DNA of 64,000 bases from an uncultured Clostridia bacterium (GCA_944332815.1 CALVKQ010000001.1:49697-113696); one strand, 5' to 3'. Positions 10,438 through 60,233 are shown, numbered from the stretch's first letter. Notes: generated by a model not told the origin, from the letters alone. Numbers and translations: made by a program.

Positions 10438-11598
10438 TCAGGCCTGCTTGCCGTCCTGTCCGTCGCCGAAGCCGATGTCGTCTGCGTCCTTCTCGTCCTC
10501 GATGTCATATTCCGCCACGCCCGTCGTCGGCTGGACGGCGATGTCCATCTGCCTGCGGAAGGCACGGGAGAGCAGGAGCAGGACGCCTGCCGCAAGGTCT
10601 ATGGCGAGGTCCACCACGGTGAAGGAGTTGTACGCCAAAGAGTAGTAGAAGAACTGATCCGCACCGTAGCCCCCTTCTATGGCATACGCGCCGAACGCGA
10701 ACGTGCCGGAGAGGAGGTGGCACAGATAACGCAGCACCACGGCGACGGTCGCGCCCACGACGAATGCCGCTATCTTATTCTTCTTGATGGGCGTGCGCTC
10801 GAAGAATAAGCCGCTTGCCGCGATCATACCGAATGCGAGCGGATAGTCCAGCATGAACTGCACGGGGTGGATGATATAGGTGTCTTGAAGCGCTTGCAGG
10901 AAGCCGTAAATGAGGCAGACCATCACGCCCCTGCGAGTGCCGAACATCGCGCAGTAGATCATGAGGGGCAGGAGGCTTGCGAACGTCACGCTGCCGCCCT
11001 GGGGCAGATCCACGAGTTTAACGTAAGAGAGCGCAAAGGACATGGCGATGGCGATCGCGCCGTAGACCACGGACTTGGTTTCGTTGACTTCCCTCTTCTT
11101 GCCCACAAAGTAGATGGCGATGAGCGCGACCAGCATTGCCACGAAGGAAATGATGAGCGCGGTGTCGTTCATGTAGGGGGAATAATCCGTATCGCCCGAG
11201 ATATTCTCTTTGAAGTAATCCGCCAACACCACCATGAGCGCTATGAGTCCGCCCAACAATCCCAGCCCGGTGATGACTGTCGCCACCTTGGTGAGGAACT
11301 TGTTGAACACGGACGCAAGCCCCATAAGGCAGCCGCCGCATAGCGCGATGAGCACGAGCGCGAGTATCGCCGGGAAGTAAGGCATGAAAGAGTCATCCGC
11401 CTCCATCTCGTAGAACGTCGCTGCCGCGAGCAGCGCGGCGGCGGTCAGGGCGACCCCGAGCAGGGTGCCTATCGCCACTTTGGAAAAATCTTTGAGCTTT
11501 TCTCTGCGGAACTTATACAGCAGCAGCGCAACGATGCCGAACGCCGCTATGAGAGCCACGACCGTATAAAGCAACGCAAAGGCCAGTTCTTCCGTCAT
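10438..11598 (-). CDS. thiT: ThiT-type (ECF S-component) thiamine transporter with an N-terminal multi-TM extension
   Basis: The C-terminal ~190 aa (LPQGGSVTFASLLPLMIY...TRRG...) resemble ThiT. A TPP riboswitch lies directly upstream. The first ~170 aa are additional TM helices. Confidence 0.75.
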   Translation of the reverse strand: MTEELAFALLYTVVALIAAFGIVALLLYKFRREKLKDFSKVAIGTLLGVALTAAALLAAATFYEMEADDSFMPYFPAILALVLIALCGGCLMGLASVFNKFLTKVATVITGLGLLGGLIALMVVLADYFKENISGDTDYSPYMNDTALIISFVAMLVALIAIYFVGKKREVNETKSVVYGAIAIAMSFALSYVKLVDLPQGGSVTFASLLPLMIYCAMFGTRRGVMVCLIYGFLQALQDTYIIHPVQFMLDYPLAFGMIAASGLFFERTPIKKNKIAAFVVGATVAVVLRYLCHLLSGTFAFGAYAIEGGYGADQFFYYSLAYNSFTVVDLAIDLAAGVLLLLSRAFRRQMDIAVQPTTGVAEYDIEDEKDADDIGFGDGQDGKQA

Positions 11599-11642
11599 AG
11601 TTGTATCCTCCGTAAAAGAATTTTCGTTTGCGCGTCGGGAAT

Positions 11643-11668
11643 GAAAAACCCCGAACGTATGCTCGGGG
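11643..11668 (-). terminator. Riboswitch expression-platform terminator
   Basis: On the minus strand, CCCCGA-gcatacgt-TCGGGG is followed by TTTTT, between the aptamer and the thiT start. Confidence 0.6.
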
Positions 11669-11689
11669 CGTTCAACAAAAGGAATAAGG

Positions 11690-11765
11690 TCGTTTGCTTC
11701 CTTACGCGAGGATTATCTCACAAGTTGAAGGGTATGATCTCAGCCTTTCGGCACCCCTAGCGCAT
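11690..11765 (-). promoter_or_regulatory. TPP (THI-box) riboswitch
   Basis: The minus strand reads GGGGTGCCGAAAGGCTGAGATCATACCCTTCAACTTGTGAGATAATCCTCGCGTAAGGAAG. This carries the conserved GGGGUGC, CUGAGA, ACCCUU and GCGUAAGG elements. Confidence 0.85.
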
Positions 11766-11767
11766 TT

Positions 11768-11796
11768 ATCCTATCACCGCCCTCCTATCCTGTCAA
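11768..11796 (-). promoter_or_regulatory. Candidate promoter for the riboswitch-thiT unit
   Basis: TTGACA-17 nt-TAGGAT on the minus strand, immediately upstream of the aptamer. Confidence 0.45.
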
Positions 11797-12012
11797 GCGT
11801 GTTTTTGCCGCGTTCGCAAATTAATGCGGAGCCTTCCCCTCTCTCCGCGCCCTTACTCGCTCGCGCTTCTTTTTTCCAAATGTATAAAAACGCTTGCATA
11901 TGCACGCGCGTTATACTATATATAATACAATAAGCCTTGCGCGCAGGCACGCGAAAGGCATATGATAAGGCAGAAGAATAAGAGAAGTACTATCGCTCAG
12001 GAGAATATCCGA

Positions 12013-12793: not shown

Positions 12794-14188
12794 ATGACAG
12801 ACACTCAGACAGCCGACGGCGGTGTTATAAAACCGCGGAAGCGCAAACTGAACCGGAAACCGTCCACCATGCAGATACTTGTGCTTGGTTACCTTGCCAT
12901 TATCCTGCTGGGGACGTTTTTCCTTTGTCTGCCCATCTCCGCGAAAAACGGAGGATGGACGGCTTTTATCGACTCTCTGCTCGTCGCCACCTCCGCCACC
13001 TGCGTGACGGGGCTCATCACGGTGGACACCTTCCTGCACTGGACGACGTTCGGGCAGGTGGTCATCATCCTGCTCATACAGATAGGCGGACTCGGGTTCA
13101 TGACATTCGTCACCCTCTTCTCTCTCGCGCTCGGCAGACGCATAGGGCTGTTCGAACGCGGACTCATCGCACAGTCCGCAGGCGCATTCGGAAAGGGCGG
13201 CATACTGCGCCTCATAAAACGCATCCTCATCTTCACCTTTTCGGTGGAGCTTCTGGGCGCGTGCATACTTATGACGCGCTTCGTGCCTGAATTCGGCGGA
13301 CAGGGGGTGTGGTTTGCCTTCTTCCACTCCATCTCGGCATTCTGCAACGCAGGCTTCGACCTCATGGGCGTGAAAGGCACGGAGTTCGCCTCCCTCACCT
13401 CATACAGCGACGACTGGGTGGTCAACCTCACCATCTGCGCCCTCATCCTGGTGGGCGGCATGGGCTACGTGGTGTGGAGCGACATCTGGGACAAACGCTT
13501 CCGTTACAGGCAGTACCGCCTGCACACGCGCATAGTGCTGTGGTCGGCGGTCATACTCGTCTTCCTCCCTGCCCTGCTCATCTTCGCTTTCGAACAAGGC
13601 GGCAGCGTGCTGGAAGGCAAAGGTCCTGCGGAAAGTTTCCTCATCTGCCTCTTCCAGGCGGTCACCCCGAGGACGGCAGGGTTCAACACCGTGCCGATAG
13701 CCGAGCTCTCCGACAGCAGCATACTGCTCATCCAGATCCTGATGTTCATAGGCGGAAACAGCGGTTCCACCGCAGGCGGCGTGAAGGTCACCACCATGGT
13801 GGTCATCCTCTTCGGGCTGTACTCCTCCGTGCGCGGACACAAGGATATAGTGATAGGCAAACGCTCGCTGGACCTTTCGCTTGCCAAACAGGCGATGTCG
13901 CTGTTCACCATCTACCTCATCTTCGTGCTGACGGCGACCCTCATCATCTGCGCGGTGGAACCTCAGAACATCACCCTGCGCGACGTTTCCTTCGAGTGCG
14001 TGTCCGCGATCGCGACCGTCGGTCTGACCACGGGTATCACTCCCCTGCTGCACACCGCGTCCAAGTTCATCATCACTCTGCTGATGTTCTCGGGCAGGCT
14101 GGGCGTGCTCACCCTCGCGTCCGCGATGATGACCTCGAAAGTCCAGCCCCTCACCAAACGCCCGACGGAAAAAATACTGATAGGCTAG
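12794..14188 (+). CDS. TrkH/KtrB family potassium uptake membrane protein
   Basis: Polytopic protein with repeated GF/GG pore-loop motifs (TATCVTGL, FCNAGFD, RTAGFN, ATVGLTTG). Confidence 0.9.
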   Translation: MTDTQTADGGVIKPRKRKLNRKPSTMQILVLGYLAIILLGTFFLCLPISAKNGGWTAFIDSLLVATSATCVTGLITVDTFLHWTTFGQVVIILLIQIGGLGFMTFVTLFSLALGRRIGLFERGLIAQSAGAFGKGGILRLIKRILIFTFSVELLGACILMTRFVPEFGGQGVWFAFFHSISAFCNAGFDLMGVKGTEFASLTSYSDDWVVNLTICALILVGGMGYVVWSDIWDKRFRYRQYRLHTRIVLWSAVILVFLPALLIFAFEQGGSVLEGKGPAESFLICLFQAVTPRTAGFNTVPIAELSDSSILLIQILMFIGGNSGSTAGGVKVTTMVVILFGLYSSVRGHKDIVIGKRSLDLSLAKQAMSLFTIYLIFVLTATLIICAVEPQNITLRDVSFECVSAIATVGLTTGITPLLHTASKFIITLLMFSGRLGVLTLASAMMTSKVQPLTKRPTEKILIG

Positions 14189-14212: not shown

Positions 14213-14854
14213 ATGAAATCCATACTCGTCATAGGAATGGGACGCTTCGGCACCTACCTCGCCATGAAACTCACCGAGCTCGGCAATCAGGTCATGATAG
14301 CCGACAAGGACGAGGATAAGATCAACCGCCTCTCCCACCACTTCACCGACGCGATCATAGGCGATTGCAGCCGCGAAGAGGTGCTGGAAGAGATAGGCGT
14401 CAACAACTTTGACATCTGCTTCGTCACCATGGGCGAGAGCTTCCAATCCTCTTTGGAGGTCACTTCCCTTCTCAAAGACATGGGCGCGAAGTACGTCGTG
14501 ACCAAATCGTGCAGCGAGATACAAAGCAAATTCCTGCTGCGTAACGGCGCGGACGAGGTGGTGTATCCCGAGCGCGACCTGGCGTTCAAGACCGCCATCC
14601 GCTTCAACGCGGACAACATCTTCGACTTCATCCAGCTGGGCGCGGACTACGGCGTGTTCGAGATCAAAGTGCCCCACGAATGGGTGGGCAAGAACGTCGT
14701 CGGCGCGAACGTGCGCAAAGAGTACGGGCTCAACGTCCTCGCGGTCAAAAAGAACAACTCCGTGGCGCTTGCCGCCAGCGACTATGTGTTTGAAGACGGC
14801 GACCATGTGATAGTCGCGGGCGCGTTCAAAAACATCGACCGCCTCAAACACTGA
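14213..14854 (+). CDS. TrkA/KtrA family potassium uptake regulatory subunit
   Basis: N-terminal Rossmann motif VIGMGRFG and a C-terminal TrkA_C-like part, directly after trkH. Confidence 0.9.
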   Translation: MKSILVIGMGRFGTYLAMKLTELGNQVMIADKDEDKINRLSHHFTDAIIGDCSREEVLEEIGVNNFDICFVTMGESFQSSLEVTSLLKDMGAKYVVTKSCSEIQSKFLLRNGADEVVYPERDLAFKTAIRFNADNIFDFIQLGADYGVFEIKVPHEWVGKNVVGANVRKEYGLNVLAVKKNNSVALAASDYVFEDGDHVIVAGAFKNIDRLKH

Positions 14855-14877: not shown

Positions 14878-14915
14878 GAAACCACCGGTCGGCCCGGTGG
14901 TTTCGCTTTTTTTTT
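14878..14915 (+). terminator. Intrinsic terminator after the trk operon
   Basis: GAAACCACCGG-tcggc-CCGGTGGTTTC followed by a T9 run. Confidence 0.75.
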
Positions 14916-15127
14916 ACGCACGGCATCACGCTCTCCGCCTACCCTTGCATAACATCCATCGGTGCCCGTCCCGCAATGCGACATTTATATGCGGCGTCAT
15001 CCCGCTCTCGTCGCATTTCAGCACAAAACAGCATTTGATGATGTTTATTTAAGTGTTAAACTGTCCGATATGCAGAAATCCGCGCTCAGGCGGGTTTACT
15101 GTTCCTGTCGGATAGAGTTGCGCAAAA

Positions 15128-16111
15128 TTATGCGTTTGACACAAAACTATAAGTCTTATGCAATGGCGAATTCTGTCGCACCGTGAATCCGTCGGGCAAT
15201 ATTATGCTGCGGCGGTCGGAATGCGGCATATAACCGTTAAAGTGGAAACTCGCCTTTTTCAAATTGAATTGCTTGTCAATCACATACACTTCGTAGACAT
15301 CTATCATATGAGGCTGATGTGGGTCCGCAACGGAATAGCGCCGCATCGAACCGTAAGGCATACTTGTATTGCATTTTCTCGCCACGATGACTTCGCCGTC
15401 AAGACCGACAAGGCTCGGAATAATCTCCAACGCAGCCCTCGCGTACAAAAACGCATCCTTTGACGGCAAAAATCCCATCGGCTCTTCTGCACAAAAGCCT
15501 CTGCCCGTGTAGTCGGCGGAAGAACACGGCTCGTCATCGAGTTTTGATATCATATATCGGATAAAATCGCAATACGGCATATTTAGATTCAGAGCTTCGG
15601 TGTTGAGCGCCCTCATAAAATAATAGACGCTGCGCGTCGTTTTCCTCATATAAGCATAAACCGTACCGAGCAAAATATTTAACTCGCCGTAATTGTGCAA
15701 CCAGCCCACCCATTCTTCATTCGCCGCAAACGGATAAGCGGGCTTTTTCTTGTTGAGGTCGCTAATCCCGTGACAACAATACAATTCCGCCTTCGCCAGG
15801 TCCTTCTCAAAGCCGAACGAACCGAAAATATAAGCGAAAATCGCCCGCTTATATTCCAAGTATGACATCTCCTCTTCGTCTTTGCAGGGTATCGGAAGCC
15901 TTTCCGCCGTCAGCGTAAACCACGGATTGCGTTCCATCATTATCGCAAAGATATCCTCATCCATCTCCATCCCGCACGGACTTACATACTTTTTCACAGC
16001 CGCTCCTCCCGAACTTTTTTCTTTGTCCATCTCATATTTCTTTCGCAAAAAATTTGTGAACTGCTCAACCTCTTCCGTCAAATCGTAATCTTCCTGCCGT
16101 GATTCTTTCAT
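15128..16111 (-). CDS. Hypothetical protein (327 aa)
   Basis: GGGAGGAG SD before the ATG at 16111. Clean ORF inside the low-GC island. I recognise no family. Confidence 0.6.
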   Translation of the reverse strand: MKESRQEDYDLTEEVEQFTNFLRKKYEMDKEKSSGGAAVKKYVSPCGMEMDEDIFAIMMERNPWFTLTAERLPIPCKDEEEMSYLEYKRAIFAYIFGSFGFEKDLAKAELYCCHGISDLNKKKPAYPFAANEEWVGWLHNYGELNILLGTVYAYMRKTTRSVYYFMRALNTEALNLNMPYCDFIRYMISKLDDEPCSSADYTGRGFCAEEPMGFLPSKDAFLYARAALEIIPSLVGLDGEVIVARKCNTSMPYGSMRRYSVADPHQPHMIDVYEVYVIDKQFNLKKASFHFNGYMPHSDRRSIILPDGFTVRQNSPLHKTYSFVSNA

Positions 16112-16273
16112 TTTTTCTCCTCCCGTTTTTTCGTGCACCTTAAAACGTCGCATTTTCCATGCAACAAAAAATCATCCGACCGCCGTCACATCCCCTAACG
16201 CTGCATGATTTAAGATATCTCAAGGATTTCGAGGTCGTATTTTATCTAAAATCCGTCATGCTCAGAATAAAAT

Positions 16274-17038
16274 TCACATCACCTTTATCGTCACGGAACT
16301 CTCATTCACCTCTATGGCAAGTTTTTTGGCACAGCGTGTGCACGTGGTCGTAAATTCCGTCCCCGCCGAGATCTTCCCTATCTTGCTCCCACAACCGGGA
16401 CAATTTATGTAATAAAATGTCTGCCACTTCGGACCCGGCTTCGGAGCAGGCGCCGGAGCAGGCGTCGGAGCGGGCGTCGGAGCAGGCTTCGGAACGGGCT
16501 TCGGTAGGTCGGGTGTCGAAACGATCTTCAGATAGCCCTGCTCAAAGCATTGCGGCGATTGAAAGACTTTGACGCCTTCTTCACCTTCGAACCGTACACA
16601 TGCGCGCCCGTCGATGATGCTCTTCAAAATGCCGATCCCGTATTTTTCATGCCTGACTATACTCCCGACGGGCGGCTCCTTCGGCTTCGGAGGCTCCGGG
16701 ATGACGGGCGATCCGACTATCCTGTCACACCATGCACATATTTTATCTTCGTAAGTGTCCGCGTCCCGCCGCTCCCACTGACTGCACATATAGTATCGTC
16801 CGGCAAGATACCAAGTGACCCAATATCGTGCATAACCCGACGCATCGTAAACATCTTCCAAGTCGTCGACAAGCAGTGGGTATGCGATGTCGAACTTCCT
16901 TTTGCTGTAATCTTTATCATGCAACAGCTTGATAATGTCCGGCGTCAAATAGCCTTTGTTATACAACCACGAAAAAAGTCTTTTCACCCAATCCTGGGTT
17001 TTCTCTCCGCTTCGCTTTGTCGGATAGATCCTGTCCAT
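16274..17038 (-). CDS. Hypothetical protein: N-terminal domain, Pro-rich linkers, Tudor/DUF3553-like segment and C-terminal zinc ribbon
   Basis: AAGGAG SD. PEPPKPKEPP and PKPVPKPAPTPAPTPAPAPAPKP linkers. VRHEKYGIGIL...VRFEG resembles a small beta-barrel module. C-terminal CPGC...CTRC. Confidence 0.6.
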   Translation of the reverse strand: MDRIYPTKRSGEKTQDWVKRLFSWLYNKGYLTPDIIKLLHDKDYSKRKFDIAYPLLVDDLEDVYDASGYARYWVTWYLAGRYYMCSQWERRDADTYEDKICAWCDRIVGSPVIPEPPKPKEPPVGSIVRHEKYGIGILKSIIDGRACVRFEGEEGVKVFQSPQCFEQGYLKIVSTPDLPKPVPKPAPTPAPTPAPAPAPKPGPKWQTFYYINCPGCGSKIGKISAGTEFTTTCTRCAKKLAIEVNESSVTIKVM

Positions 17039-17279
17039 ATTATTACTCCTTGTTTTACATTTGTTTTATAAGCTTCGATTCATTCATTTATCTTTCGCGC
17101 AGGATCCGGCGATGGAGCTGCGTCTTTGTTTGATGTGCTGTTTTATTAGATCTGTCACGCGGGATATCCGCTTTGACGGCGATCGCGCTGTTTGCCGCTG
17201 CCTTTGGTGACTTTCACAAGGTTTGACCTGTCGTTCCGATGAGGGCTGCATAAATTGTTCGGCGCCCTCGAAGATCCCG

Positions 17280-17921
17280 TCACTTTTCGTCCGTTTCGAG
17301 AGAGGATTTCCAGTCCGAGCCTATGTCGGAGATGCCTATACGTGCCGAATACACCACATCGTTCAATACCCTACTGTACATTTTTCTGACGCCGCTGTGA
17401 CTGGGGGTAAAATTCGCTGCATGAGAGGCGCATATCCCGAGTTTTCCGGCTTCGGAAACGGCGTCCATATTTGCGCCGAGGAAAATAAACTGCCATGAGT
17501 ATTTCTCCTGCTGATGTGCAATCATCTCCCGCACTTTCTGCAAGCTGTAACTCATGCTTGAATTCTCCTCCCCGTCCGTCGTAATCACGAAAATGACGTG
17601 TTCGGGGCGTTCCTCTTCCGGGGTATTGCTCAGACGTACTCCCAAATTGTCTATCGTCCGTCCGACCGCGTCGAGAAGTGCCGTACCTCCGCGGGCAGAA
17701 TAGTCATCTTTCGTCAGCGGCTTAACCTCATCAAGGGCGACGTGCTCGTGCAGCACCTGATAACTTGTATCGAACAGAACTGTCGTGATATATGCCTCAC
17801 CCTCGATTTTTCTTTGTTTTTCGATAAATTCGTTGAACCCTCCTATTGTGTCCTCTTCAAGCGGTTTCATAGAGCCGCTGCGGTCCAGTACAAAGACCAT
17901 CTCCGTCAGATTTTTTTTCAT
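17280..17921 (-). CDS. von Willebrand factor type A (vWA) domain protein
   Basis: MIDAS motif DRSGSM near the N-terminus, later T and D(G) positions (GGTALLDA, ITTDGEEN), about 210 aa. Confidence 0.8.
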   Translation of the reverse strand: MKKNLTEMVFVLDRSGSMKPLEEDTIGGFNEFIEKQRKIEGEAYITTVLFDTSYQVLHEHVALDEVKPLTKDDYSARGGTALLDAVGRTIDNLGVRLSNTPEEERPEHVIFVITTDGEENSSMSYSLQKVREMIAHQQEKYSWQFIFLGANMDAVSEAGKLGICASHAANFTPSHSGVRKMYSRVLNDVVYSARIGISDIGSDWKSSLETDEK

Positions 17922-17968
17922 AAGACATTTCCTTGCATTTTATTTTACGTCTTTTTATCGACGCAATT

Positions 17969-18340
17969 TTAATTTTCTTCAAAGCGGTATATTCTGGTGA
18001 GAATCGGCAGCAGGCGCTCTGCCAAATCAACCCGCTTTTCGGATGACAATTCGCAGACCGTGTCTCCGCGGATTGCCCCGAGAATAAAGGCTATCTCCTC
18101 CGTCCCGAACTTTTTCCCTCCGAGATAACATCCCTTTTTTGTCTTTACTATCGGATATCCCATCTCGATGAGCGCTTCGATATTGCGTCCGACAGTCTTC
18201 CTGTCGCACGGCATCACGTCGTTAAGCCATTCGGCTATCTCCGTCTGCGTCATCGGGTGATTCCGGTCCGTATTCGATTCCAGAATCTTCAAAACGTACA
18301 GAATCAGATATTTTTTGCGGCTCAAAATCTTGTCCTCCAT
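17969..18340 (-). CDS. Winged-HTH transcriptional regulator (WYL-regulator-type N-terminal domain, no WYL domain)
   Basis: YLILYVLKILESNTDRNHPMTQTEIAEWL...DRKTVGRNIEAL matches the HTH_11-type N-terminus of WYL regulators. Only 123 aa from the internal ATG at 18340. Confidence 0.65.
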   Translation of the reverse strand: MEDKILSRKKYLILYVLKILESNTDRNHPMTQTEIAEWLNDVMPCDRKTVGRNIEALIEMGYPIVKTKKGCYLGGKKFGTEEIAFILGAIRGDTVCELSSEKRVDLAERLLPILTRIYRFEEN

Positions 18341-18414
18341 TTTAATTATAACAATGTGCTTGTACCAAAAATCGCCCACAATGTTTTTTTGCGAAAAATT
18401 AATTTCCGGACAGC

Positions 18415-18498
18415 CATATGCCGTTTGATTTATATTAATTTTCGCCGGATGAATTTTCGGCATTCTTTTCATATGCCGTTTGATATGTATTAATTTCG
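18415..18498. repeat. Two ~30-bp direct repeats in the divergent regulator intergenic region
   Basis: CATATGCCGTTTGATTTATATTAATTTTCG (18415-18444) and CATATGCCGTTTGATATGTATTAATTTCG (18470-18498), starts 55 bp apart. Confidence 0.7.
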
Positions 18499-18590
18499 AG
18501 CATACACGTTTATATGGCTGCGAGCAACCATATAAAAAGTATAATACTGTTACTGTTGCACATAACCATTCCAAAGGGGAGTGCGCAGCC

Positions 18591-18834
18591 GTGAACACCA
18601 TAAATAAAGCGCTCAAATTGCGCATCGAAGAACTGCTGAAAGAAAAAAAATATGACGAGATACCGACCGGCGATGAACAGCGGCATAACGCATTCTACCC
18701 TGAAAAACATTCTTCACGAAACAGTTTCGGACAGTCTGTTGTCAACAGTGATACTCATAGCCTCTGGTTTCAATATGACAGTGAGTGAATTTCTCGACAG
18801 TCCGTTGTTTTGCGAAGACAAGCCGGACATATAA
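18591..18834 (+). pseudogene. XRE-family HTH regulator interrupted by a frameshift in an A8 tract
   Basis: GTG start with an AAGGGGAG SD. Helix 1 (LRIEELLKEKK) is in one frame. The rest of the HTH (MTRYRPAMNSGITHSTLKNI...FNMTVSEFLD) is in the +1 frame, switching at A8 (18642-18649). Confidence 0.55.
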
Positions 18835-18846
18835 CGCAGAATACCG

Positions 18847-18883
18847 AAAACCGCACCGAAAGGTGCGGTCTTTTCGTTGTTTT
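18847..18883 (+). terminator. Intrinsic terminator
   Basis: ACCGCACC-gaaa-GGTGCGGT followed by cTTTTcgTTgTTTT. Confidence 0.7.
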
Positions 18884-18939
18884 AAGATGTAAGGACGAAT
18901 GCAATGCGGCAAAGAGCGTTCTCGCGCCGTGCCGCGTCT

Positions 18940-20577
18940 TTACAAAAACTTTTCCTCTTCCGTGTCGTAAAGCCCCGTGTCCAGCAGCCGCAGACGGGGT
19001 ATGACGGGGAGCGCAACGAATGAGAGAGTGGTGAACGCGTCCACGCCGGGATCCACCCCCATGGCGTGCGCGATGCGCTCCAACTCCTCCGTCCTTTTTG
19101 CCACTTCCTCCGCGCTGCCCGTCGCCATGAGCCCGAACGCAGGCATGGGGAGTTCCCCCACCGTCCTGCCGCCCGACGCGATGACGTAACCGCCGCCTAT
19201 CTCTTGCAGTCTTTTTAGGGCGAACGCCATATCCGCGGCATTGTCGCCTGCGCATACGGCGTTGTGCGAATCGTGAGATATAGAAGTGGCGATCGCGCCG
19301 CCCCTCATACCGTAGCCCACCAGCTTACACACGGCGAAATTCCCGTTCCGCCCATGCCTTTCCGCCGTCACGAGCAGGTCGCACGGCTCGCCTTTCCCGA
19401 CCTTTGTTTTCTCGGTGATTATCTGCCCTTGCACCAAAGAGAGCGCGACCCCGTCCAAGCGTCCGGGCACGGCTATATCCTCTGCGGATATCGTGTTGAG
19501 ATGCACAGAATTTTCAAAAACGGCATGTTTATCTTCATGTTCCGATGGTTTAACCGTGAGTTTTCCGTTTTTCGCCACGACGACGCCGTCCTTCAAAACG
19601 CAGACTACTTCCCCCGTATCCTCCTTGGCAACAACTATATCGGCGCGCAGTCCCTCCCCTATGTTCCCCCTGTCCGGCAAGCCGTAAAAGCGGCAGGGAG
19701 AATAGGAGGACATCCTTGCGACATCTCCCCATCCGAAGCCCTTTCGGAGGGCGAGGGAGACTATGTGCGAGATGTGTCCTTCGCGCGCTATGGTGGCAAG
19801 ATGCTTGTCGTCCGTACAGAAAGCGAAACGCCCCGTGTCCAGTCCCCTTTCCTTCACGCCGTCCAACAACTCGGAAGCGTTGCGCGCCGCGCTCCCTTCG
19901 CGGATATAGATGTTCATGCCCCTGTCGTAGCGCGCGAACATCTCTTCCTTGGTCGCGCACTCATGGTCGTTGCAAACGCCTGCGGCGACATAGGCGTCCA
20001 ACATACTTTCGGGCATACCGGCGGTGTGCCCGTCCACCGTCCTGCCGCAAAAGAGTGCGAGTTTTGCCGCCATGCGAGGCTCTCCGTGCGCCGCGTCGGC
20101 AAATCTCATCACCTCGCCCAGTCCCACCACCATGGGATCGTCCGCGAACTCTTTCATGTCATCCGCAGAGAACTCGCCCGCGCCGTTGGTGTCCAGCTCC
20201 GTGGCAGGCACGCTTGACGGCAGGCATATAAATATGTCCGCGCGCGAACGGCGGCACTCCTCCATGAAGACGCGCAGCCCGGGCGCGCCTGCGACATTGA
20301 CGACTTCGTGAGGGTCGGCGATGACGGTCGTGGTGCCGAAAGGCAGCACCGCGTCCCCGAACGCCGCAGGCAGCACCATGCCCGACTCTATGTGCACGTG
20401 AGCGTCCGCGAACCCTGCCGCGATCACCTTCCCCGTGCAGTCCAAGACCTCGTCCGCGCTTTCGTAGCCGCATCCGCCCACTCGCGCGATGCGCCCGTCC
20501 TCTACAAGCACGTCCGCAGAAAAAAGCACGGCACGTCTGCCGTCGGCGACCCTGCCGCCTTTTAAGAGCACTCTCAT
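18940..20577 (-). CDS. ade: Adenine deaminase
   Basis: 545 aa amidohydrolase-fold protein with GFADAHVHIESG and the two-domain length typical of Ade. Confidence 0.8.
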   Translation of the reverse strand: MRVLLKGGRVADGRRAVLFSADVLVEDGRIARVGGCGYESADEVLDCTGKVIAAGFADAHVHIESGMVLPAAFGDAVLPFGTTTVIADPHEVVNVAGAPGLRVFMEECRRSRADIFICLPSSVPATELDTNGAGEFSADDMKEFADDPMVVGLGEVMRFADAAHGEPRMAAKLALFCGRTVDGHTAGMPESMLDAYVAAGVCNDHECATKEEMFARYDRGMNIYIREGSAARNASELLDGVKERGLDTGRFAFCTDDKHLATIAREGHISHIVSLALRKGFGWGDVARMSSYSPCRFYGLPDRGNIGEGLRADIVVAKEDTGEVVCVLKDGVVVAKNGKLTVKPSEHEDKHAVFENSVHLNTISAEDIAVPGRLDGVALSLVQGQIITEKTKVGKGEPCDLLVTAERHGRNGNFAVCKLVGYGMRGGAIATSISHDSHNAVCAGDNAADMAFALKRLQEIGGGYVIASGGRTVGELPMPAFGLMATGSAEEVAKRTEELERIAHAMGVDPGVDAFTTLSFVALPVIPRLRLLDTGLYDTEEEKFL

Positions 20578-20681: not shown

Positions 20682-21251
20682 TCATTTCAGGTTTTCTTCG
20701 ATGAGCGCGTCCAGATACTTGGGCAAGTCCTTTTCCGCAAGCACTCCCGGGTTGTCCAGCAGCCATATGAGCAGGCTGACGAGCGCCCCGGCGTAGCATA
20801 TCGCCGTCATCTGCGACGGCACCGAAGTGTGATGCGTCCCCTTGAACTTCCCCAGCTGATAACGGATGGACTGCGCCAAAGAATCCGTGAGCGTATGCAC
20901 CACTTTCTCGTTGCGGTTGAACTCCACTATCCTCGCCACATGATTGTGTTTGTCCGAAAGATACTCCACCGCCATGAACAGCAGCTTGTGCATGAGCTCC
21001 TTGGGAGAGGCGGCAGGCACGTCCTGCGTGAAACTTTCGTAAACAGAATCTTTCAGTTCTTCCAGCGCGAAGGACAGCAAATGATACTTGTCCTCGAAGT
21101 GCGCGTAAAAAGTGGCGCGGTTGACCATCGCCCGTTTGCACAGGTCGATGACGCTTATGCGTTCGATGGAGCTTTCCTCCATCATTTCGAGCAGCGTGGC
21201 GCTGAGCAACTTGCGAGTGCGCACTATCCTGAGGTCTTCCTTATACTCCAT
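20682..21251 (-). CDS. TetR/AcrR family transcriptional regulator
   Basis: N-terminal HTH with ISVIDLCKRAMVNRATFYAHFEDKYHLL. Start placed at MEYKED. Confidence 0.85.
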   Translation of the reverse strand: MEYKEDLRIVRTRKLLSATLLEMMEESSIERISVIDLCKRAMVNRATFYAHFEDKYHLLSFALEELKDSVYESFTQDVPAASPKELMHKLLFMAVEYLSDKHNHVARIVEFNRNEKVVHTLTDSLAQSIRYQLGKFKGTHHTSVPSQMTAICYAGALVSLLIWLLDNPGVLAEKDLPKYLDALIEENLK

Positions 21252-21509
21252 AAACCCGACTTCCCTTAAATAAGTTTGTATCATTATCCCACAATACCCC
21301 CACGATGTCAAGATAAAATACAAAAGTCTGTTATCCTACATCGGGTGCGCTTTTGCCACGTCCGCCCCGTAACTGTCGCCCGAACGCGCCCTTGTCCGCA
21401 GACAAAAACCGACAAAATATCCCACGAAACGACATCCTCTCACGCGCTTGTTTTTCCCTCTTATTTTTCGTTTGCGCACAATTAACGGACGAAAAATGCC
21501 CTATAAGCC

Positions 21510-21538
21510 TTGATAAATGCGAAAATGTTTGTTATATT
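21510..21538 (+). promoter_or_regulatory. Candidate promoter for the M28 peptidase gene
   Basis: TTGATA-17 nt-TATATT, followed by a 10-bp inverted repeat (21552-21561 / 21577-21586) that could be the TetR operator. Confidence 0.4.
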
Positions 21539-21600
21539 AGATATTAGCTTATTTATGCGTGACGCGCGCACAGCCGCACGCATAAACTGTACGGAGTGTT

Positions 21601-22839
21601 ATGAGAGTTTCCGAAGAGATACGCAACAAAGCCGTGGATTACAGCTTGGATTCCATCAAGTATATCTGCGAAGAGATAGGTCCGCGCGAGTCCGGTATGC
21701 CTGCCGAGCGCAAAGCCCAGGAATGGCTGAAAGACCAGCTGCTCAAAAACGGTTGGGCGGACGAGGCGGCGATAGAGCCCTTCACCGTGTCGCGTCACGG
21801 GCTGGTCGGCTTCACGAAGATAGTTTCCGTGATGCTGGTCATCGCGGCGGCGATGCAGTTCGTCGCTCTTGCAGGCGGCGCAGCCGCGAATGCGGCGGCA
21901 AACGCCGTGACCATCTTCCTGTGCGGCGTGGGGCTGCTCATCACCGTGCTGGAATTTCTGATGTACAAGCCTTTCATCGACCCCCTCCTCCCCAAAACGG
22001 AGTCGGGCAACGTGTACGCCACCTACAAAAGCAGCGGCGAAACCAAACGTCGCATAGTCTTTTCCGGGCATTGTGACTCCGCCTACGAGTGGACGCTGAT
22101 GAAGATAAAACCTGCGTTCATGATCGCGGTGATAGTTCTCTGTGTGGTGGGCGTGCTTGCGGCGGTCGCGCTCTGCATCGTGAACCTGGTGCGCGGCGAG
22201 CCTGCCGTATGGAGCCTGGTCGTGACCTCGGCGTTCATCCCCGTGTACGTGCTGCTCTACTTCTTCTGCACTTTCAAGGTGGTGGTCCCGGGCGCGAACG
22301 ACAACCTGACGGGAGTGCTGGCGTCCGTCGCCGTGCTCAAATGCCTGAAAGAGAGCGGCATCCGCTTCGAGCACACCGAAGTCGCCGTGTTGCTCACCGG
22401 GTCGGAAGAAGCAGGTCTGCGCGGAGCGTTTGCATGGGCGCGCAAACACAAAAAGGAGATAATGTCCGACGGCACCGAAACCGTGTTCATCGGGCTGGAA
22501 ACCCTGCGCGACTGGGATCATCTCAACATCTATAACCGCGACCTCACCGGCACCGTCGCGCATGACGCCGGCGCGGTCAAACTGCTGGACAAAGCGTCCG
22601 CCGCCTGCGGCAGACCTCTCAAACACTTCTCGGTGTTCTTCGGCGCGTCCGACGCCGCCGCAGTCACCAAAGAAGGGCTCCGCGCCACCTGCCTTGCCGG
22701 GATGGATCCCACCCCTGCGGACTACTATCACAACGTCAAGGACACCGCGGATAACATGGACAGAAAAACATTTGCGCTCGGTCTGGATATAGCCATCGAA
22801 GCTGCCGAGATCTTCGACAGAGAGGGGGCGCCGGAATGA
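21601..22839 (+). CDS. M28 family metallopeptidase with inserted transmembrane segments
   Basis: GHCDSAYEW, GANDNLTGV and GSEEAGLRG match the metal-ligand motifs of M28. Hydrophobic helices lie between residues ~70-240. Confidence 0.7.
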   Translation: MRVSEEIRNKAVDYSLDSIKYICEEIGPRESGMPAERKAQEWLKDQLLKNGWADEAAIEPFTVSRHGLVGFTKIVSVMLVIAAAMQFVALAGGAAANAAANAVTIFLCGVGLLITVLEFLMYKPFIDPLLPKTESGNVYATYKSSGETKRRIVFSGHCDSAYEWTLMKIKPAFMIAVIVLCVVGVLAAVALCIVNLVRGEPAVWSLVVTSAFIPVYVLLYFFCTFKVVVPGANDNLTGVLASVAVLKCLKESGIRFEHTEVAVLLTGSEEAGLRGAFAWARKHKKEIMSDGTETVFIGLETLRDWDHLNIYNRDLTGTVAHDAGAVKLLDKASAACGRPLKHFSVFFGASDAAAVTKEGLRATCLAGMDPTPADYYHNVKDTADNMDRKTFALGLDIAIEAAEIFDREGAPE

Positions 22840-25947: not shown

Positions 25948-26016
25948 ACCCGAAAATTTTACTCTTTCCCTCTCAAAATGTAAAGCGATGCCGTGCCGAA
26001 ATAATAAGGATATGCC

Positions 26017-26790
26017 TCAAAGCAGGTCTTTCACCGCTTTGTAATTGTAATTCTTTTTCAGCACGCGGTAAAAGGTGGGGATGGAAGAAAATCCGCACGC
26101 GAGAGCAGCTTCCGATGCTGTGCATCCCGTGTTTTTCATCATGTCCAGCGTATGCATCAGCCTGACCGCGGACACATAGTCCGTGATGGACGTCCCCAGC
26201 GCCGCATTGAACATCCTGGAAAAGTAATAGCGGCTGTATCCGAAATGCTCCGCCATGCTCTCCAACGTGATGTCGTCCGCGTAATGCTCGCTTATGTACG
26301 CCAAAAGTTCGTCCACGAAGGTCTGCCTGCCGCGCACGCCCTCCGTATATCCCAGCTTATCCGCTATGCGCCCCAGCAGCATATCGCAGTGCGCCTGCAT
26401 GACGAGAGGATTGTCCTCCCCCTTTGCGAGCGCCTCCACGTGAGGCAGCAGAGAGCGGCAAAACTCCTCGTCCGTGACGACGCACCCGTTCATGAGCTTG
26501 TCGCCGAAGCGGTCGTAGTAGTCGCGCAGCATATGGTTGGGGAACACCAGCACCGTCTGACGGCTGCCCTCGCTCTCCTCGTAACCGTGCATCTCGTAGC
26601 TGTTGGCAAAGAAAATATTGTCCGCGCCGAGGTCCCTTTCCTTGCCGGAAGCGAAGAACTTCTTCCTCCCCTCCGTGACGTACATGACCTCCACTTTTCT
26701 GTGGAAATGCACGTGACACACGTTGTCGCAGTCCGCCGAAACGAAAAGCCGTTCGTCCCTTTCCCTGTTTATCTCATATTGAGCAAGCAT
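26017..26790 (-). CDS. AraC family transcriptional regulator
   Basis: N-terminal cupin-like part and a C-terminal double HTH (YSRYYFSRMFN ... GFSSIPTFYRVLKK). GGGGAGGG SD before the ATG at 26790. Confidence 0.8.
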   Translation of the reverse strand: MLAQYEINRERDERLFVSADCDNVCHVHFHRKVEVMYVTEGRKKFFASGKERDLGADNIFFANSYEMHGYEESEGSRQTVLVFPNHMLRDYYDRFGDKLMNGCVVTDEEFCRSLLPHVEALAKGEDNPLVMQAHCDMLLGRIADKLGYTEGVRGRQTFVDELLAYISEHYADDITLESMAEHFGYSRYYFSRMFNAALGTSITDYVSAVRLMHTLDMMKNTGCTASEAALACGFSSIPTFYRVLKKNYNYKAVKDLL

Positions 26791-26828
26791 AGCGACCCTC
26801 CCCGTCCGATTTCCGCATTTTACGGATA

Positions 26829-26857
26829 ATGACAGCAATAATTGAGAATATTATAAT
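26829..26857 (+). promoter_or_regulatory. Candidate promoter divergent from araC-like gene
   Basis: ATGACA-17 nt-TATAAT. Confidence 0.45.
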
Positions 26858-26946
26858 CAAAATTTTAATGCACGTCCAGTGAATACGCACTACAATGTCC
26901 GCGAAAAATAAATAAAGCCATACCGAACATAAAGGAGGTGCCGACA

Positions 26947-27039
26947 ATGAAAACCAAAACAGCGACCACGATGCAGACCAAGCGTACCGGCATCGCAAAA
27001 CGCATCGGCGAAGCCCTCTTCTGGGCGACCCGCCACTGA
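26947..27039 (+). CDS. Candidate 30-aa small protein (MKTKTATTMQTKRTGIAKRIGEALFWATRH)
   Basis: AAAGGAGGTG SD 6 nt before the ATG. It is absent from the ORF track, presumably because of its size. A promoter lies upstream and a terminator downstream. Confidence 0.35.
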   Translation: MKTKTATTMQTKRTGIAKRIGEALFWATRH

Positions 27040-58868: not shown

Positions 58869-59113
58869 AAATTCACCCCTTGAGTTTGATAAGTTAATTA
58901 TACTCCCCTCCTCTCCCGAGCGCAAGAGTCAGTTCTCGCGTTTTGTCGAAAATGCCCGGGACGTATCCGAGCGCGCTCCGAATAAGTGAACGTGAGGAAA
59001 AAAGTTTAATGGGGGCGTCCCCTGACAAGGCATACTTCCGTCTTCGAATGAGTGTGGAGTGTGTTCAAGCACACACGCTCATGCTTCACGTTATACCGAA
59101 ACAGGAACGCGTT

Positions 59114-59237
59114 GGGACACAACGGGGACGGGGTAAAGCCGGGGTACCCATCTTTGATGGGGCTTGGGGGCGCAAATGTCCAATGAGGGACAAAACGTGT
59201 CCCTAATTGGACATTTTTGCCCCGTCCCCGTTGTCCC
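59114..59237. repeat. Long imperfect hairpin homologous to the 38494-38638 inverted repeat
   Basis: GGGACACAACGGGGACGGGG (59114-59133) pairs with CCCCGTCCCCGTTGTCCC (59220-59237). An inner hairpin is AAATGTCCAAT..GGGACA/TGTCCC..AATTGGACATTT. The GGGGACGGG core is shared with region 1. Confidence 0.75.
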
Positions 59238-59296
59238 GGATAAAGCAAGAACACTCTAACTAGTGCACGTGTGGAATAAAGTTTAATAGGGGCTTG

Positions 59297-59790
59297 CGTC
59301 CCCTGACATGGAAGTATAGCTCCCCCTCCTCCCCGGGGACCCCACAAAATGCATGCATTTTGTGGGGAGCCCCATTCGGGACTCCTCCCCCACTCGGAAT
59401 AGAGGACAATCCTCCTAAAATGCGGAACTCACTTTTTCATAAAGGCGCAGGCGGTGCGCCTTTATGAAAACACCTCTTGAAAAAGTTTGTTTATCGCACT
59501 TACATAATCAAGCGGCGAACAGTGCTCACTGAACGTCGCTCGTGGGGCGAGGAGGGCGACTCGACGCGCACCGAGCCCGTGTCTACTTAATTTTTCGTCT
59601 AGCTTGCGAGGTCGCAGATCCGCGCCGCGACTTGCAAGCGTGGGCGAACATTCGCCCACGGTGCAAGTTTGGCTGAGCGGCGCGTAATTCCGTCTTCGAA
59701 CGAGTATAAGTTGAAATTAAGTACGCTCCGGATAAGTGCACGTGGAATATTAGGGTTTTTCCCCGTCTTCGAATAAGGTTTGGAAAAATA
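59297..59790. repeat. Mosaic structured non-coding element, copy 2 (paralog of 38645-39170)
   Basis: It has the same order and orientation of conserved blocks as copy 1 (59298, 59383-59421, 59594, 59621-59685, 59725-59778). The interior differs and includes a 15-bp hairpin at 59434-59470. Confidence 0.7.
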
Positions 59791-59807
59791 ATTTCAACGC
59801 CCTTGCC

Positions 59808-60233
59808 TTAAACGGCGATATTTGGATGAAGAGCGCGAAAGCCCCACATATCCGGACGCGCGGTGTACTTTTTTTGCCCCAGCTGAAAATCCTCTGATTT
59901 TCACCCGGGGACCCCGATGTACATAAGCGGCCGGAGATGTGGGGCTGACAAAGCTATTCGCCAAATAGCGGCGTTTAACTTGTTAAAGCGCGATATTTTC
60001 GCGTCAGACAAGGAAGAACCGCGTTCCACGGACGCGCGGTGTACTCCTTGTACATAAGCGGTCGGGAACGCGGTTCTGACGCAGTATCACGCAAAATAAC
60101 ACACTTATCTAAACGGCGATATTTGGATGAAATGCGCGAAAGAACCCTGCCGAGAGGCGGAACGTACATTGACGTACGTGAGCATCTACGGCAGGGACTC
60201 TGACAAAGCAGTTCGCCAAATAGCGCCGTTTAA
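59808..60233. repeat. Three tandem long hairpin elements directly after the surface-protein stop codon
   Basis: Units at 59808-59978 and 60110-60233 share basal arms TTAAACGGCGATATTTGG / CCAAATAGCGsCGTTTAA. A middle unit spans about 59985-60090. The last arm overlaps the TAA stop at 60230-60232. Confidence 0.8.

Follow-up and report, generated by a model that had tools for sequence, protein, structure and literature searches.

A strain-variable cassette at the trkA-ade junction of a gut Christensenellales lineage, a candidate for an undescribed modular defence-type system

What occupies the space between the core genes trkA and ade in some strains of a gut Clostridia lineage, and what might it do there? 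The locus lies in a stretch of 64,000 nucleotides from an uncultured Clostridia bacterium (GCA_944332815.1 CALVKQ010000001.1:49697-113696), which in its whole length we call the window and number from its first letter; the host belongs to a Christensenellales lineage of metagenome-assembled genomes (MAGs). About 4 kb of the window (14930-18900) hold a minus-strand operon of four genes that encode, in this order, a small winged helix-turn-helix (wHTH) regulator, a von Willebrand factor A (vWA) protein and two further proteins, here called gene 4 and gene 5; an XRE gene faces the other way. We find that this stretch is a genuine accessory cassette that varies between strains, and we regard it as a candidate new defence-type cassette assembled from three undescribed protein families, namely gene 5, the small wHTH and a part of gene 4 that we call domain X.

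The accessory status follows from the contigs that encode exactly the TrkA protein of the window, 22 contigs that are shown here as 10 configurations. Four configurations (L005, L006, L008, L009) have an empty site, where a spacer of 156-230 bp parts trkA from ade, and the other six, with TrkA likewise 100% identical, are occupied by differing alleles. One configuration (L003, with nine further similar places) carries the window-type allele, 100% identical over 8.7 kb; L004 has the same cassette with gene 4 deleted and the XRE gene intact; and L001, L002, L007 and L010 harbor divergent or mosaic alleles. The synteny comparison that a first-pass annotation of this DNA had proposed, for a trkA-ade junction with and without the island, thus finds both forms among contigs with identical TrkA. 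Rather than being present in all relatives and encoding ordinary metabolic enzymes, the island is missing from some conspecific strains, and none of its proteins matches a metabolic family. Its polymorphic presence at a conserved site together with an atypical composition marks the stretch as an accessory island.

The alleles differ from one another far more than the DNA around them. The flanks are 97-99.6% identical, whereas the vWA-wHTH-XRE block of divergent alleles is only about 70% identical in DNA; the synonymous divergence (dS) is 0.02-0.10 in the flanks and at least 1.5, or saturated, in the island genes. The ratio of nonsynonymous to synonymous divergence (dN/dS) of the island genes, 0.11-0.34, shows that these genes are maintained under purifying selection, and together with the high dS it suggests that the alleles are old, maintained lineages and not decaying DNA. 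The L010 allele is a mosaic, with a vWA gene 98% identical to that of the window, a gene 5 similar to that of L001, and a different gene 4. The cassette is also found at the same site in other MAGs, Candidatus Limadaptatus stercoravium and further Clostridia MAGs (L019, L020, L107-L109), whose TrkA is 85-91% and whose Ade is 69-73% identical to the proteins of the window and in which the gene content varies further. The island had been described as inserted, which implies a recent event; this part of the description has to be given up, as the same site is occupied in at least two other species-level MAGs (L019, L020).

In composition the cassette stands apart from its surroundings. Its GC content is 47.1%, against 58.1% elsewhere in the window, and 14930-18900 is the minimum among all intervals of 3971 bp (mean 57.3%, standard deviation 2.5%), about four standard deviations under the mean. 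At third codon positions, where the compositional shift is strongest, the GC content of the five island genes is 0.54-0.61, compared with 0.73-0.82 for trkH, trkA, ade, a tetR gene, an M28 peptidase gene and other neighbours. The low-GC island between the trk operon and the adenine deaminase gene that the first-pass annotation described is borne out by these figures, as is the AT-rich segment within it (15541-15600, 35% GC). Its strong terminators on both sides also proved to be there: one behind trkA (14878..14904, plus strand, an 11-bp stem followed by T8) and a hairpin 3' of the XRE gene (18850..18869, plus strand).

By Pfam, the genes on the left encode TrkH (12794-14188) and TrkA (14213-14854), and the gene on the right encodes adenine deaminase (18940-20577, minus strand). 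Homology between the left flank and the empty-site alleles ends at 14903, at the trkA terminator, and restarts at 18952, within the 3' end of ade; the junction alignments place the insertion point within the ancestral spacer. The non-coding left junction delimited by these alignments (14905..15127) has CTCTCCGCC (about 14938-14946) in common with the empty-site spacer, and its remainder is island-specific. We found no tRNA gene in the 64-kb window, no open reading frame for an integrase, transposase or recombinase in or beside the island, no structural or replication gene of a prophage or of an integrative and conjugative element (ICE) in the cassette, no att-like direct repeats around the island, and no target-site duplication in the junction alignments against empty sites. 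The search of open reading frames, tRNAs and repeats agrees with the earlier remark that integrase, transposase, tRNA and flanking direct repeats are lacking, and the recombinase, att repeats and tRNA target that characterise a site-specific integrative element are all missing. A 14-nt exact repeat at 14917 and 18205 was considered as an att candidate and rejected; its second copy lies inside the wHTH gene, and the match is probably due to chance.

The empty-site spacer itself varies, with a 66-bp indel between strains (L005 8643-8810, L006 6253-6494). A piece of it of about 50 bp recurs at 96% identity about 5.8 kb downstream (L005 14587-14636), an arrangement suggestive of a small dispersed repeat.

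The most fitting description of the locus is an old, integrase-free recombination hotspot, at which homologous recombination in the core genes on either side presumably swaps the contents. Integrase-free defence hotspots are variable defence islands that lie between core genes and are exchanged by recombination in their flanks. The trkA-ade locus resembles them in its fixed site between core genes, in the empty and occupied alleles of conspecific strains, in the divergent, mosaic alleles beside near-identical flanks, in its atypical composition and in the absence of an integrase and of target-site duplications. It differs from them in that no known defence system is recognised in it and in that the site holds variants of a single cassette family and not many unrelated systems. 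As an integrase-free hotspot it is a clean natural example, the divergence of the alleles exceeding that of the flanks by over an order of magnitude.

The first indication of what the cassette may do comes from gene 4 (16274..17038, minus strand), which encodes a protein of 254 amino acids with three modules; its AlphaFold2 model, with a predicted local distance difference test (pLDDT) score of 81.7, shows the same three modules. The first module, domain X (residues 1-110, nt 16709-17038), is covered by no Pfam model. The second (residues 127-172, nt 16523-16660) is a predicted Tudor domain of the PcrA/UvrD type. The third (residues 208-253, nt 16280-16417) is a Zn ribbon with the motif CPGC...CTRC, for which a profile search of the PDB (alignment A3) found only Zn ribbons. 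A Pro-rich linker is encoded by a 12-nt tandem repeat, PAPTPAPTPAPAPAPKP (16417..16512), and the lengths of gene 4 proteins within one 90% cluster are 254, 258, 262 and 266 amino acids; the linker thus changes in steps of four residues. Domain X appears to have a winged-helix-like topology, with three helices, a beta hairpin and a long helix, as read from the predicted secondary structure.

The family to which domain X belongs was revealed by an exhaustive phmmer search with this domain, which found 250 representative clusters at E<=1e-3; in a separate search for homologous proteins, full-length gene 4 as the query was swamped by the Pro-rich linker (20 close hits), and domain X alone gave 2. 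The domain is mostly C-terminal in proteins of 240-660 amino acids, stands alone in some, and has the near-invariant residues Q15, Y44, F49, R71, Y72, C85, W88 and W103. Among 102 members analysed with Pfam the fusion partners include HSDR_N_2 (20), PDDEXK_3 (10) and HSDR_N (5), further HEPN_Swt1, DUF6998, SIR2_2, Mrr_cat, HNH, T5orf172/MUG113 and Fic, and also ADP-ribosylglycohydrolase, CAP12-type TIR, nSTAND3, AAA_5 and PhoH. In PADLOC, partner domains match mREase_II (in three relatives), LmuA, ThsA, Dsr1/2, SoFic, PtuB, Cas4 and several PDC candidates. This list is the classic effector repertoire of prokaryotic conflict systems, which suggests that domain X is a recognition or adaptor module of such systems.

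The Tudor region is predicted with a pLDDT of 84-91, and in Foldseek it matches 5dma, 7egt and 7egs at a probability of 1.00 with target TM-scores (TMt) of 0.74-0.77. The root-mean-square deviation of these matches is 1.8-2.2 Å and the identity 24-26%; the E values are 0.03-0.06, the domain being short. Next in rank are CarD/CdnL, Mfd and KOW domains. The gene 4 model thus contains a five-stranded Tudor/SH3-like barrel like that of the UvrD C-terminal domain, and the structure 7egs is a complex of that domain with an RNA polymerase lobe. The Tudor domains of UvrD and PcrA and the C-terminal domains of GreA and GreB are established binders of RNA polymerase.

Both kinds of module turn up in the position between the vWA gene and gene 5, whose content changes from allele to allele. 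In the window, in L002 and in L020 this slot encodes domain X, Tudor domain and Zn ribbon, in L010 domain X and Tudor domain, and in L106 and L107 a 420-residue protein with a degenerate domain X. In L001 it holds a protein of 379 amino acids with two predicted transmembrane helices, an Mrr_cat domain (E 1.2e-26) and a GreA_GreB C-terminal domain (E 8e-14); the latter match is full-length and scores 51.8 bits against a cutoff of 26.9, and the Mrr part also matches the PADLOC models PDC-S02, ZorD and mREase_IV. The slot is empty, gene 4 being missing, in L004, L019 and L108. A variable gene accompanies the wHTH-gene 5 pair in most contexts found, including those away from the trkA-ade site: an HSDR_N_2 or PDDEXK_3-type PD-(D/E)xK nuclease fused to domain X (L011/L012), a Zn ribbon fused to domain X (L015), a vWA protein 53% identical to that of the window (L022; hhalign probability 100, in a different gene order), a Tudor plus SAD_SRA protein (L110), and small proteins without known function (L014, L024). 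HSDR_N-like nucleases with a different C-terminal domain are the partners in L021 and L107. No protein of the window allele has a nuclease domain in Pfam or PADLOC; the nuclease typical of type IV and Mrr systems is found in L001 and in many proteins with domain X.

The constant partner is gene 5 (15128..16111, minus strand; start at 16111 with GGAGG 7 nt upstream), a protein of 327 amino acids that has no match in Pfam, PHROGs, NCBIfam or PADLOC and belongs to a small family (103 hits). Its AlphaFold2 model (pLDDT 84.5, predicted template modelling score 0.83) has a helical, TPR-like N-terminal half and a beta-rich C-terminal half. Foldseek searches of the model against PDB and BFVD returned nothing at E<=0.001 and only low-probability TPR/Sel1 matches to the helical half, and a profile search of the PDB with the gene 5 alignment (A1) found nothing. 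Distant relatives, 32-43% identical, occur in unrelated genome contexts, and the same small wHTH almost always accompanies them: its gene is the direct upstream neighbour in L011-13, L014-16, L022-23, L024-25, L111 and L112, lies about 480 bp upstream of gene 5 in L110, and is absent beside gene 5 only in L021 and L026. In the lineage of the window two genes separate the pair. Some relatives of gene 5 have N-terminal transmembrane helices, and the cassettes elsewhere in L011, L014 and L021 also lie in low-GC patches.

Several observations on gene 5 stand on their own. The protein (window 16052-16111) and the Mrr-GreA/B protein of L001 (L001 11107-11166) begin with about 20 common residues, MKE[SP]R[QP]EDY[DG]LTE, and the underlying DNA is 85% identical over 61 nt, possibly a recombination joint or a docking peptide. 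We considered this acidic peptide, MKESRQEDYDLTEE, as a ligand for the metal ion-dependent adhesion site of the vWA protein and rejected the idea, as the peptide is missing in the vWA-bearing alleles L002, L007 and L020. In L110 (3997-6692) the wHTH gene and gene 5 homologue are followed by a gene for a 227-residue Tudor plus SAD/SRA protein, with serine recombinase genes downstream and a tyrosine recombinase gene upstream, and this version appears to ride on a mobile element. In L026 (2460-4308) the gene 5 homologue adjoins a pair of Phd antitoxin and Fic/Doc toxin genes, downstream of a gene for a 670-residue protein without a family.

The vWA protein (17280..17921, minus strand, 213 amino acids) comes from a different world. 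Four Pfam VWA families match residues 6-154 below the gathering score (17.9 against 23.8 bits), and the metal ion-dependent adhesion site (MIDAS) residues, D13-x-S15-x-S17, T80 and D116, are complete and invariant in alignment A4, so that by its sequence the protein probably adopts the vWA fold with an intact MIDAS. It matches the phage family phrog_7371 (E 5e-54), and its relatives include 217 phage records, whose contexts were uninformative, and 160 IMG/VR stretches. On viral and mobile-element contigs (79 IMG/VR loci, L027-L105) its recurrent neighbours are macro-domain plus HTH proteins (23 loci), ADP-ribosylglycohydrolases (14), YolD with a Y-family polymerase, and MobC with relaxase genes, which suggests an ADP-ribosylation-related accessory module on mobile elements. 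The two gene orders, that of the window family and that of L022, together with the unlinked viral relatives, indicate that a gene from the mobile-element world was recruited to the wHTH-gene 5 core on two or more occasions.

The first gene of the operon encodes the wHTH regulator of 118 amino acids (17969..18325, minus strand; TTG start with GGAGG 8 nt upstream), which is HTH_11-like; in Pfam it has only HTH_11 and HTH_36-like matches, and in PADLOC it weakly matches the HTH part of a WYL model (positions 7-84 of 229, E 1.2e-3). Could it be a WYL regulator of the BrxR/CapW type, or a truncated one? We rejected both possibilities: it has no WYL or WCX domain, and its relatives with the C-terminal helical part are natively small, with 112-118 amino acids and no WYL domain (one relative, in L024, has 87). 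Four of the five genes in the first-pass annotation are as described, with a vWA protein, two that belong to no known family and a broken XRE gene; the truncated WYL-type wHTH is replaced by a native small wHTH.

Between this gene and the XRE gene lies a divergent control region of 265 bp (18326..18590). It contains two copies of a 27-nt direct repeat, CATATGCCGTTTGAT(T/A)T(A/G)TATTAATTT, at 18415-18441 and 18470-18496, and a palindrome, TTTATATGGCTGC-GA-GCAACCATATAAA (18509-18536), immediately 5' of a TATAAT (18540-18545). Alleles that are otherwise only about 70% identical retain the palindrome and one copy of the repeat, which fits putative operator sites. In the window a single additional A shifts the reading frame of the XRE/Cro-type HTH gene (18591..18834, plus strand), the run at 18643-18650 having eight A residues (A8) against seven in L004 (A7). 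The gene is intact, with 80 amino acids, in L004, L001 and L002, and the intact form is also the commoner one in public assemblies; the intact sister proteins are named 'helix-turn-helix transcriptional regulator' in the source and have HTH_26 among their precomputed hits, while the fragment of the window gives a weak Pfam score (E 0.062).

How does the cassette compare with known systems? The window allele belongs to none of those tested, as it has no PADLOC system, no WYL domain, no nuclease and no MoxR, kinase or phosphatase partner. Searches of the island proteins in Pfam, PHROGs, NCBIfam and PADLOC yielded nothing beyond the vWA and HTH matches, a weak Zn-finger match and a TPR-like hint, and we found no description of the cassette in the literature on HSDR_N_2/NA-iREase1 in defence and on vWA-wHTH conflict systems. 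Its domain logic is closest to reader-plus-nuclease restriction of type IV and to multi-component systems with swappable effectors. Type IV restriction, which depends on modification of the DNA, combines a DNA reader with a nuclease, as in Mrr, in the SRA-HNH enzyme ScoMcrA and in DpnI-type enzymes with PD-(D/E)xK and winged-helix domains. Likewise, relatives of gene 4 join domain X to HSDR_N, PD-(D/E)xK, Mrr or HNH nucleases, and in the corresponding position L001 has Mrr_cat and L110 an SRA domain. However, the window's gene 4 lacks a nuclease; the fusions of domain X extend to SIR2, TIR, HEPN and Fic domains, partners not usual for type IV readers; and the obligatory companions, wHTH, gene 5 and often vWA, have no counterpart in type IV systems.

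Other likenesses are partial. As with the wHTH-WYL regulators BrxR and CapW, an HTH_11-like winged helix heads a defence-like operon and weakly matches the HTH part of the PADLOC WYL model, but the protein lacks the WYL/WCX part. Compared with the conflict systems built on vWA proteins, namely TerY/TerF-type vWA, TerY-P and the vWA-MoxR ternary systems (Kaur et al. 2020, PMC7159879), the cassette has a stand-alone vWA protein of about 210 amino acids with a complete MIDAS, a weak precomputed vWA-TerF-like hit and a variable, conflict-type locus; it differs in having no MoxR ATPase, kinase or phosphatase partner and no match to the PADLOC TerY-P models, and in that the nearest relatives of its vWA are phage and mobile-element proteins of unknown function. 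The predicted Tudor domain superposes on that of UvrD/PcrA, including 7egs, and the replacement gene of L001 probably shares the C-terminal domain of GreA/GreB, to judge from its full-length match; unlike in UvrD/PcrA and GreA/GreB, these modules have other companions here, a wHTH-like domain plus Zn ribbon in one case and an Mrr nuclease in the other, instead of a helicase or the coiled coil for transcript cleavage.

From these data we infer that the cassette, exchanged horizontally, is an undescribed modular defence-type system that acts on nucleic acids or transcription, at a trkA-ade hotspot of a gut Christensenellales lineage, a reading to which we give about an even chance. The modules of kinds known to bind RNA polymerase, the putative DNA readers (SRA, domain X) and the nucleases in the slot suggest a variable subunit for the recognition of foreign nucleic acid or transcription complexes. 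In a possible mechanism, the wHTH and the divergent XRE repressor would control the wHTH-vWA-gene 4-gene 5 operon through the palindrome and the repeats in the 265-bp region. Gene 4 would be the recognition or docking subunit: domain X, with its invariant aromatic wing (R71, Y72, W73, Y82, Y83, C85, W88), may bind nucleic acid, possibly modified, and the modelled UvrD-type Tudor domain may tether the protein to RNA polymerase. Gene 5 would be the constant partner or scaffold that couples recognition to output, or would itself be the effector, and the MIDAS-containing vWA protein would serve as a protein-protein adaptor of phage or mobile-element origin. The sister alleles appear to place an enzymatic effector in the gene 4 slot, either a membrane-anchored Mrr-GreA/B protein or an HSDR_N-type PD-(D/E)xK nuclease, and also a Tudor plus SRA protein.

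Several findings weigh against this reading. PADLOC-DB v2.0.0 recognised no known system and gave no hit for gene 4, gene 5, the vWA protein or the fragments of XRE, and the window allele has no recognisable enzymatic effector. The fusion of domain X to effectors is an association and not a function, and a role of gene 5 as partner or effector is a guess, since it matches neither a fold nor a family. Among the 79 loci on viral and mobile-element contigs, gene 5, the wHTH and domain X each turn up beside the vWA gene in one hit or none, and its neighbourhoods there would fit counter-defence equally well. The XRE gene is broken in the window, partial in L019 and not detected in L020, and some alleles lack gene 4, so that parts of the cassette are dispensable or decaying. 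Given the frameshifted XRE and the absence of a recognisable nuclease, the window allele may be de-repressed or partly decayed and inactive; or gene 5 may serve as the effector. The suggestion, made in the first-pass annotation, that such islands often hold conflict or defence systems is accordingly retained in part: the effector fusions of domain X, the nucleases of the sister alleles and the divergence of the alleles under purifying selection speak for it, and the PADLOC check that was to reveal a known defence system did not.

What else could maintain such a locus? The cassette could be the remnant of a decaying prophage, ICE or other mobile element, leftover cargo without a joint function that is kept by chance. 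Its foreign composition, the phage family of the vWA protein, the frameshift in XRE, the deletion of gene 4 in L004 and the lack of a known defence system would all be expected of such a remnant. However, the cassette has no integrase, att repeat, tRNA, structural or replication gene; its gene order is kept in alleles with saturated synonymous sites and low dN/dS and at the same site in at least two other species; and the wHTH-gene 5 pair, in L022 with the vWA, recurs in unrelated contexts, all of which makes chance retention quite improbable. A toxin-antitoxin or addiction module, with the wHTH (with or without XRE) as antitoxin and autorepressor, gene 5 as a toxin that stabilises the locus, and the variable genes as passengers, would explain why gene 5 is directly preceded in almost every context by a small HTH gene that often overlaps it, why some gene 5 relatives have N-terminal transmembrane helices and one is found beside a Phd/Doc-Fic pair, and why presence varies between strains. 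Gene 5, with 280-330 amino acids and a TPR-like half, is unlike known small toxins and matches no toxin family, though, two genes lie between it and the wHTH in the window lineage, and the recurring partners are DNA readers and nucleases, which better fit a multi-component sensor-effector system; we consider the addiction module improbable, if the least so of the four alternatives weighed here. Many abortive-infection systems are similar to toxin-antitoxin pairs, and the two explanations are therefore not exclusive.

The viral relatives of the vWA protein raise a further alternative, a counter-defence or fitness cassette of a mobile element that was captured by the chromosome, in which the vWA and its partners would neutralise the weapons of another element or a competitor. 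The neighbours of the vWA gene on viral contigs are indeed typical of accessory or leading regions, but they are absent at the window locus, and those contigs hardly ever carry gene 5, wHTH or domain X. With domain X fused to nucleases, SIR2, TIR and HEPN, effectors of the defence type, and the cassette located at a chromosomal site between core genes in several species, we rate counter-defence as likewise quite improbable. Its position between trkA and ade and its two DNA-binding regulators could also point to a strain-specific regulatory or physiological module for the neighbouring potassium-uptake or purine-salvage genes, without genetic conflict. This explanation is scarcely credible: conspecific strains with identical TrkA lack the cassette entirely, homologous cassettes elsewhere have unrelated neighbours, terminators insulate both sides, and the partner domains are nucleases and DNA readers.

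Outside the cassette the window has milder GC dips (0.46-0.52) at 21000-21750, 26001-27000 and 59001-60000, the first of which is the intergenic region from which a tetR-like gene and the M28 peptidase gene diverge. At the gathering score Rfam detects no RNA family in the whole 64-kb window, the island included. This negative result also covers the leader at 11500-11999 (48.6% GC) upstream of a Thia_YuaJ thiamine-transporter gene (10438-11598, minus strand), where a thiamine pyrophosphate riboswitch would be expected.

To return to the defence-type system, a bolder version of it would make the wHTH-gene 5 pair and domain X a new modular immune family of gut Clostridia that watches transcription complexes or modified nucleic acid. 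Its swappable subunits would dock on RNA polymerase by a Tudor or a GreA/B C-terminal domain, read DNA by domain X or SRA, and deliver nucleases or other effectors, with gene 5 as a core of new fold and a phage-derived vWA as adaptor; as a whole we think this version unlikely. The exchange of a Tudor domain for a GreA/B C-terminal domain in one slot nevertheless suggests docking on RNA polymerase, an idea that is directly testable. If the cassette works as an immune system, domain X would be a useful new marker for defence genes. To our knowledge, defence has hardly been studied in Christensenellales and related gut Clostridia, and a working cassette would add a new system from these bacteria.

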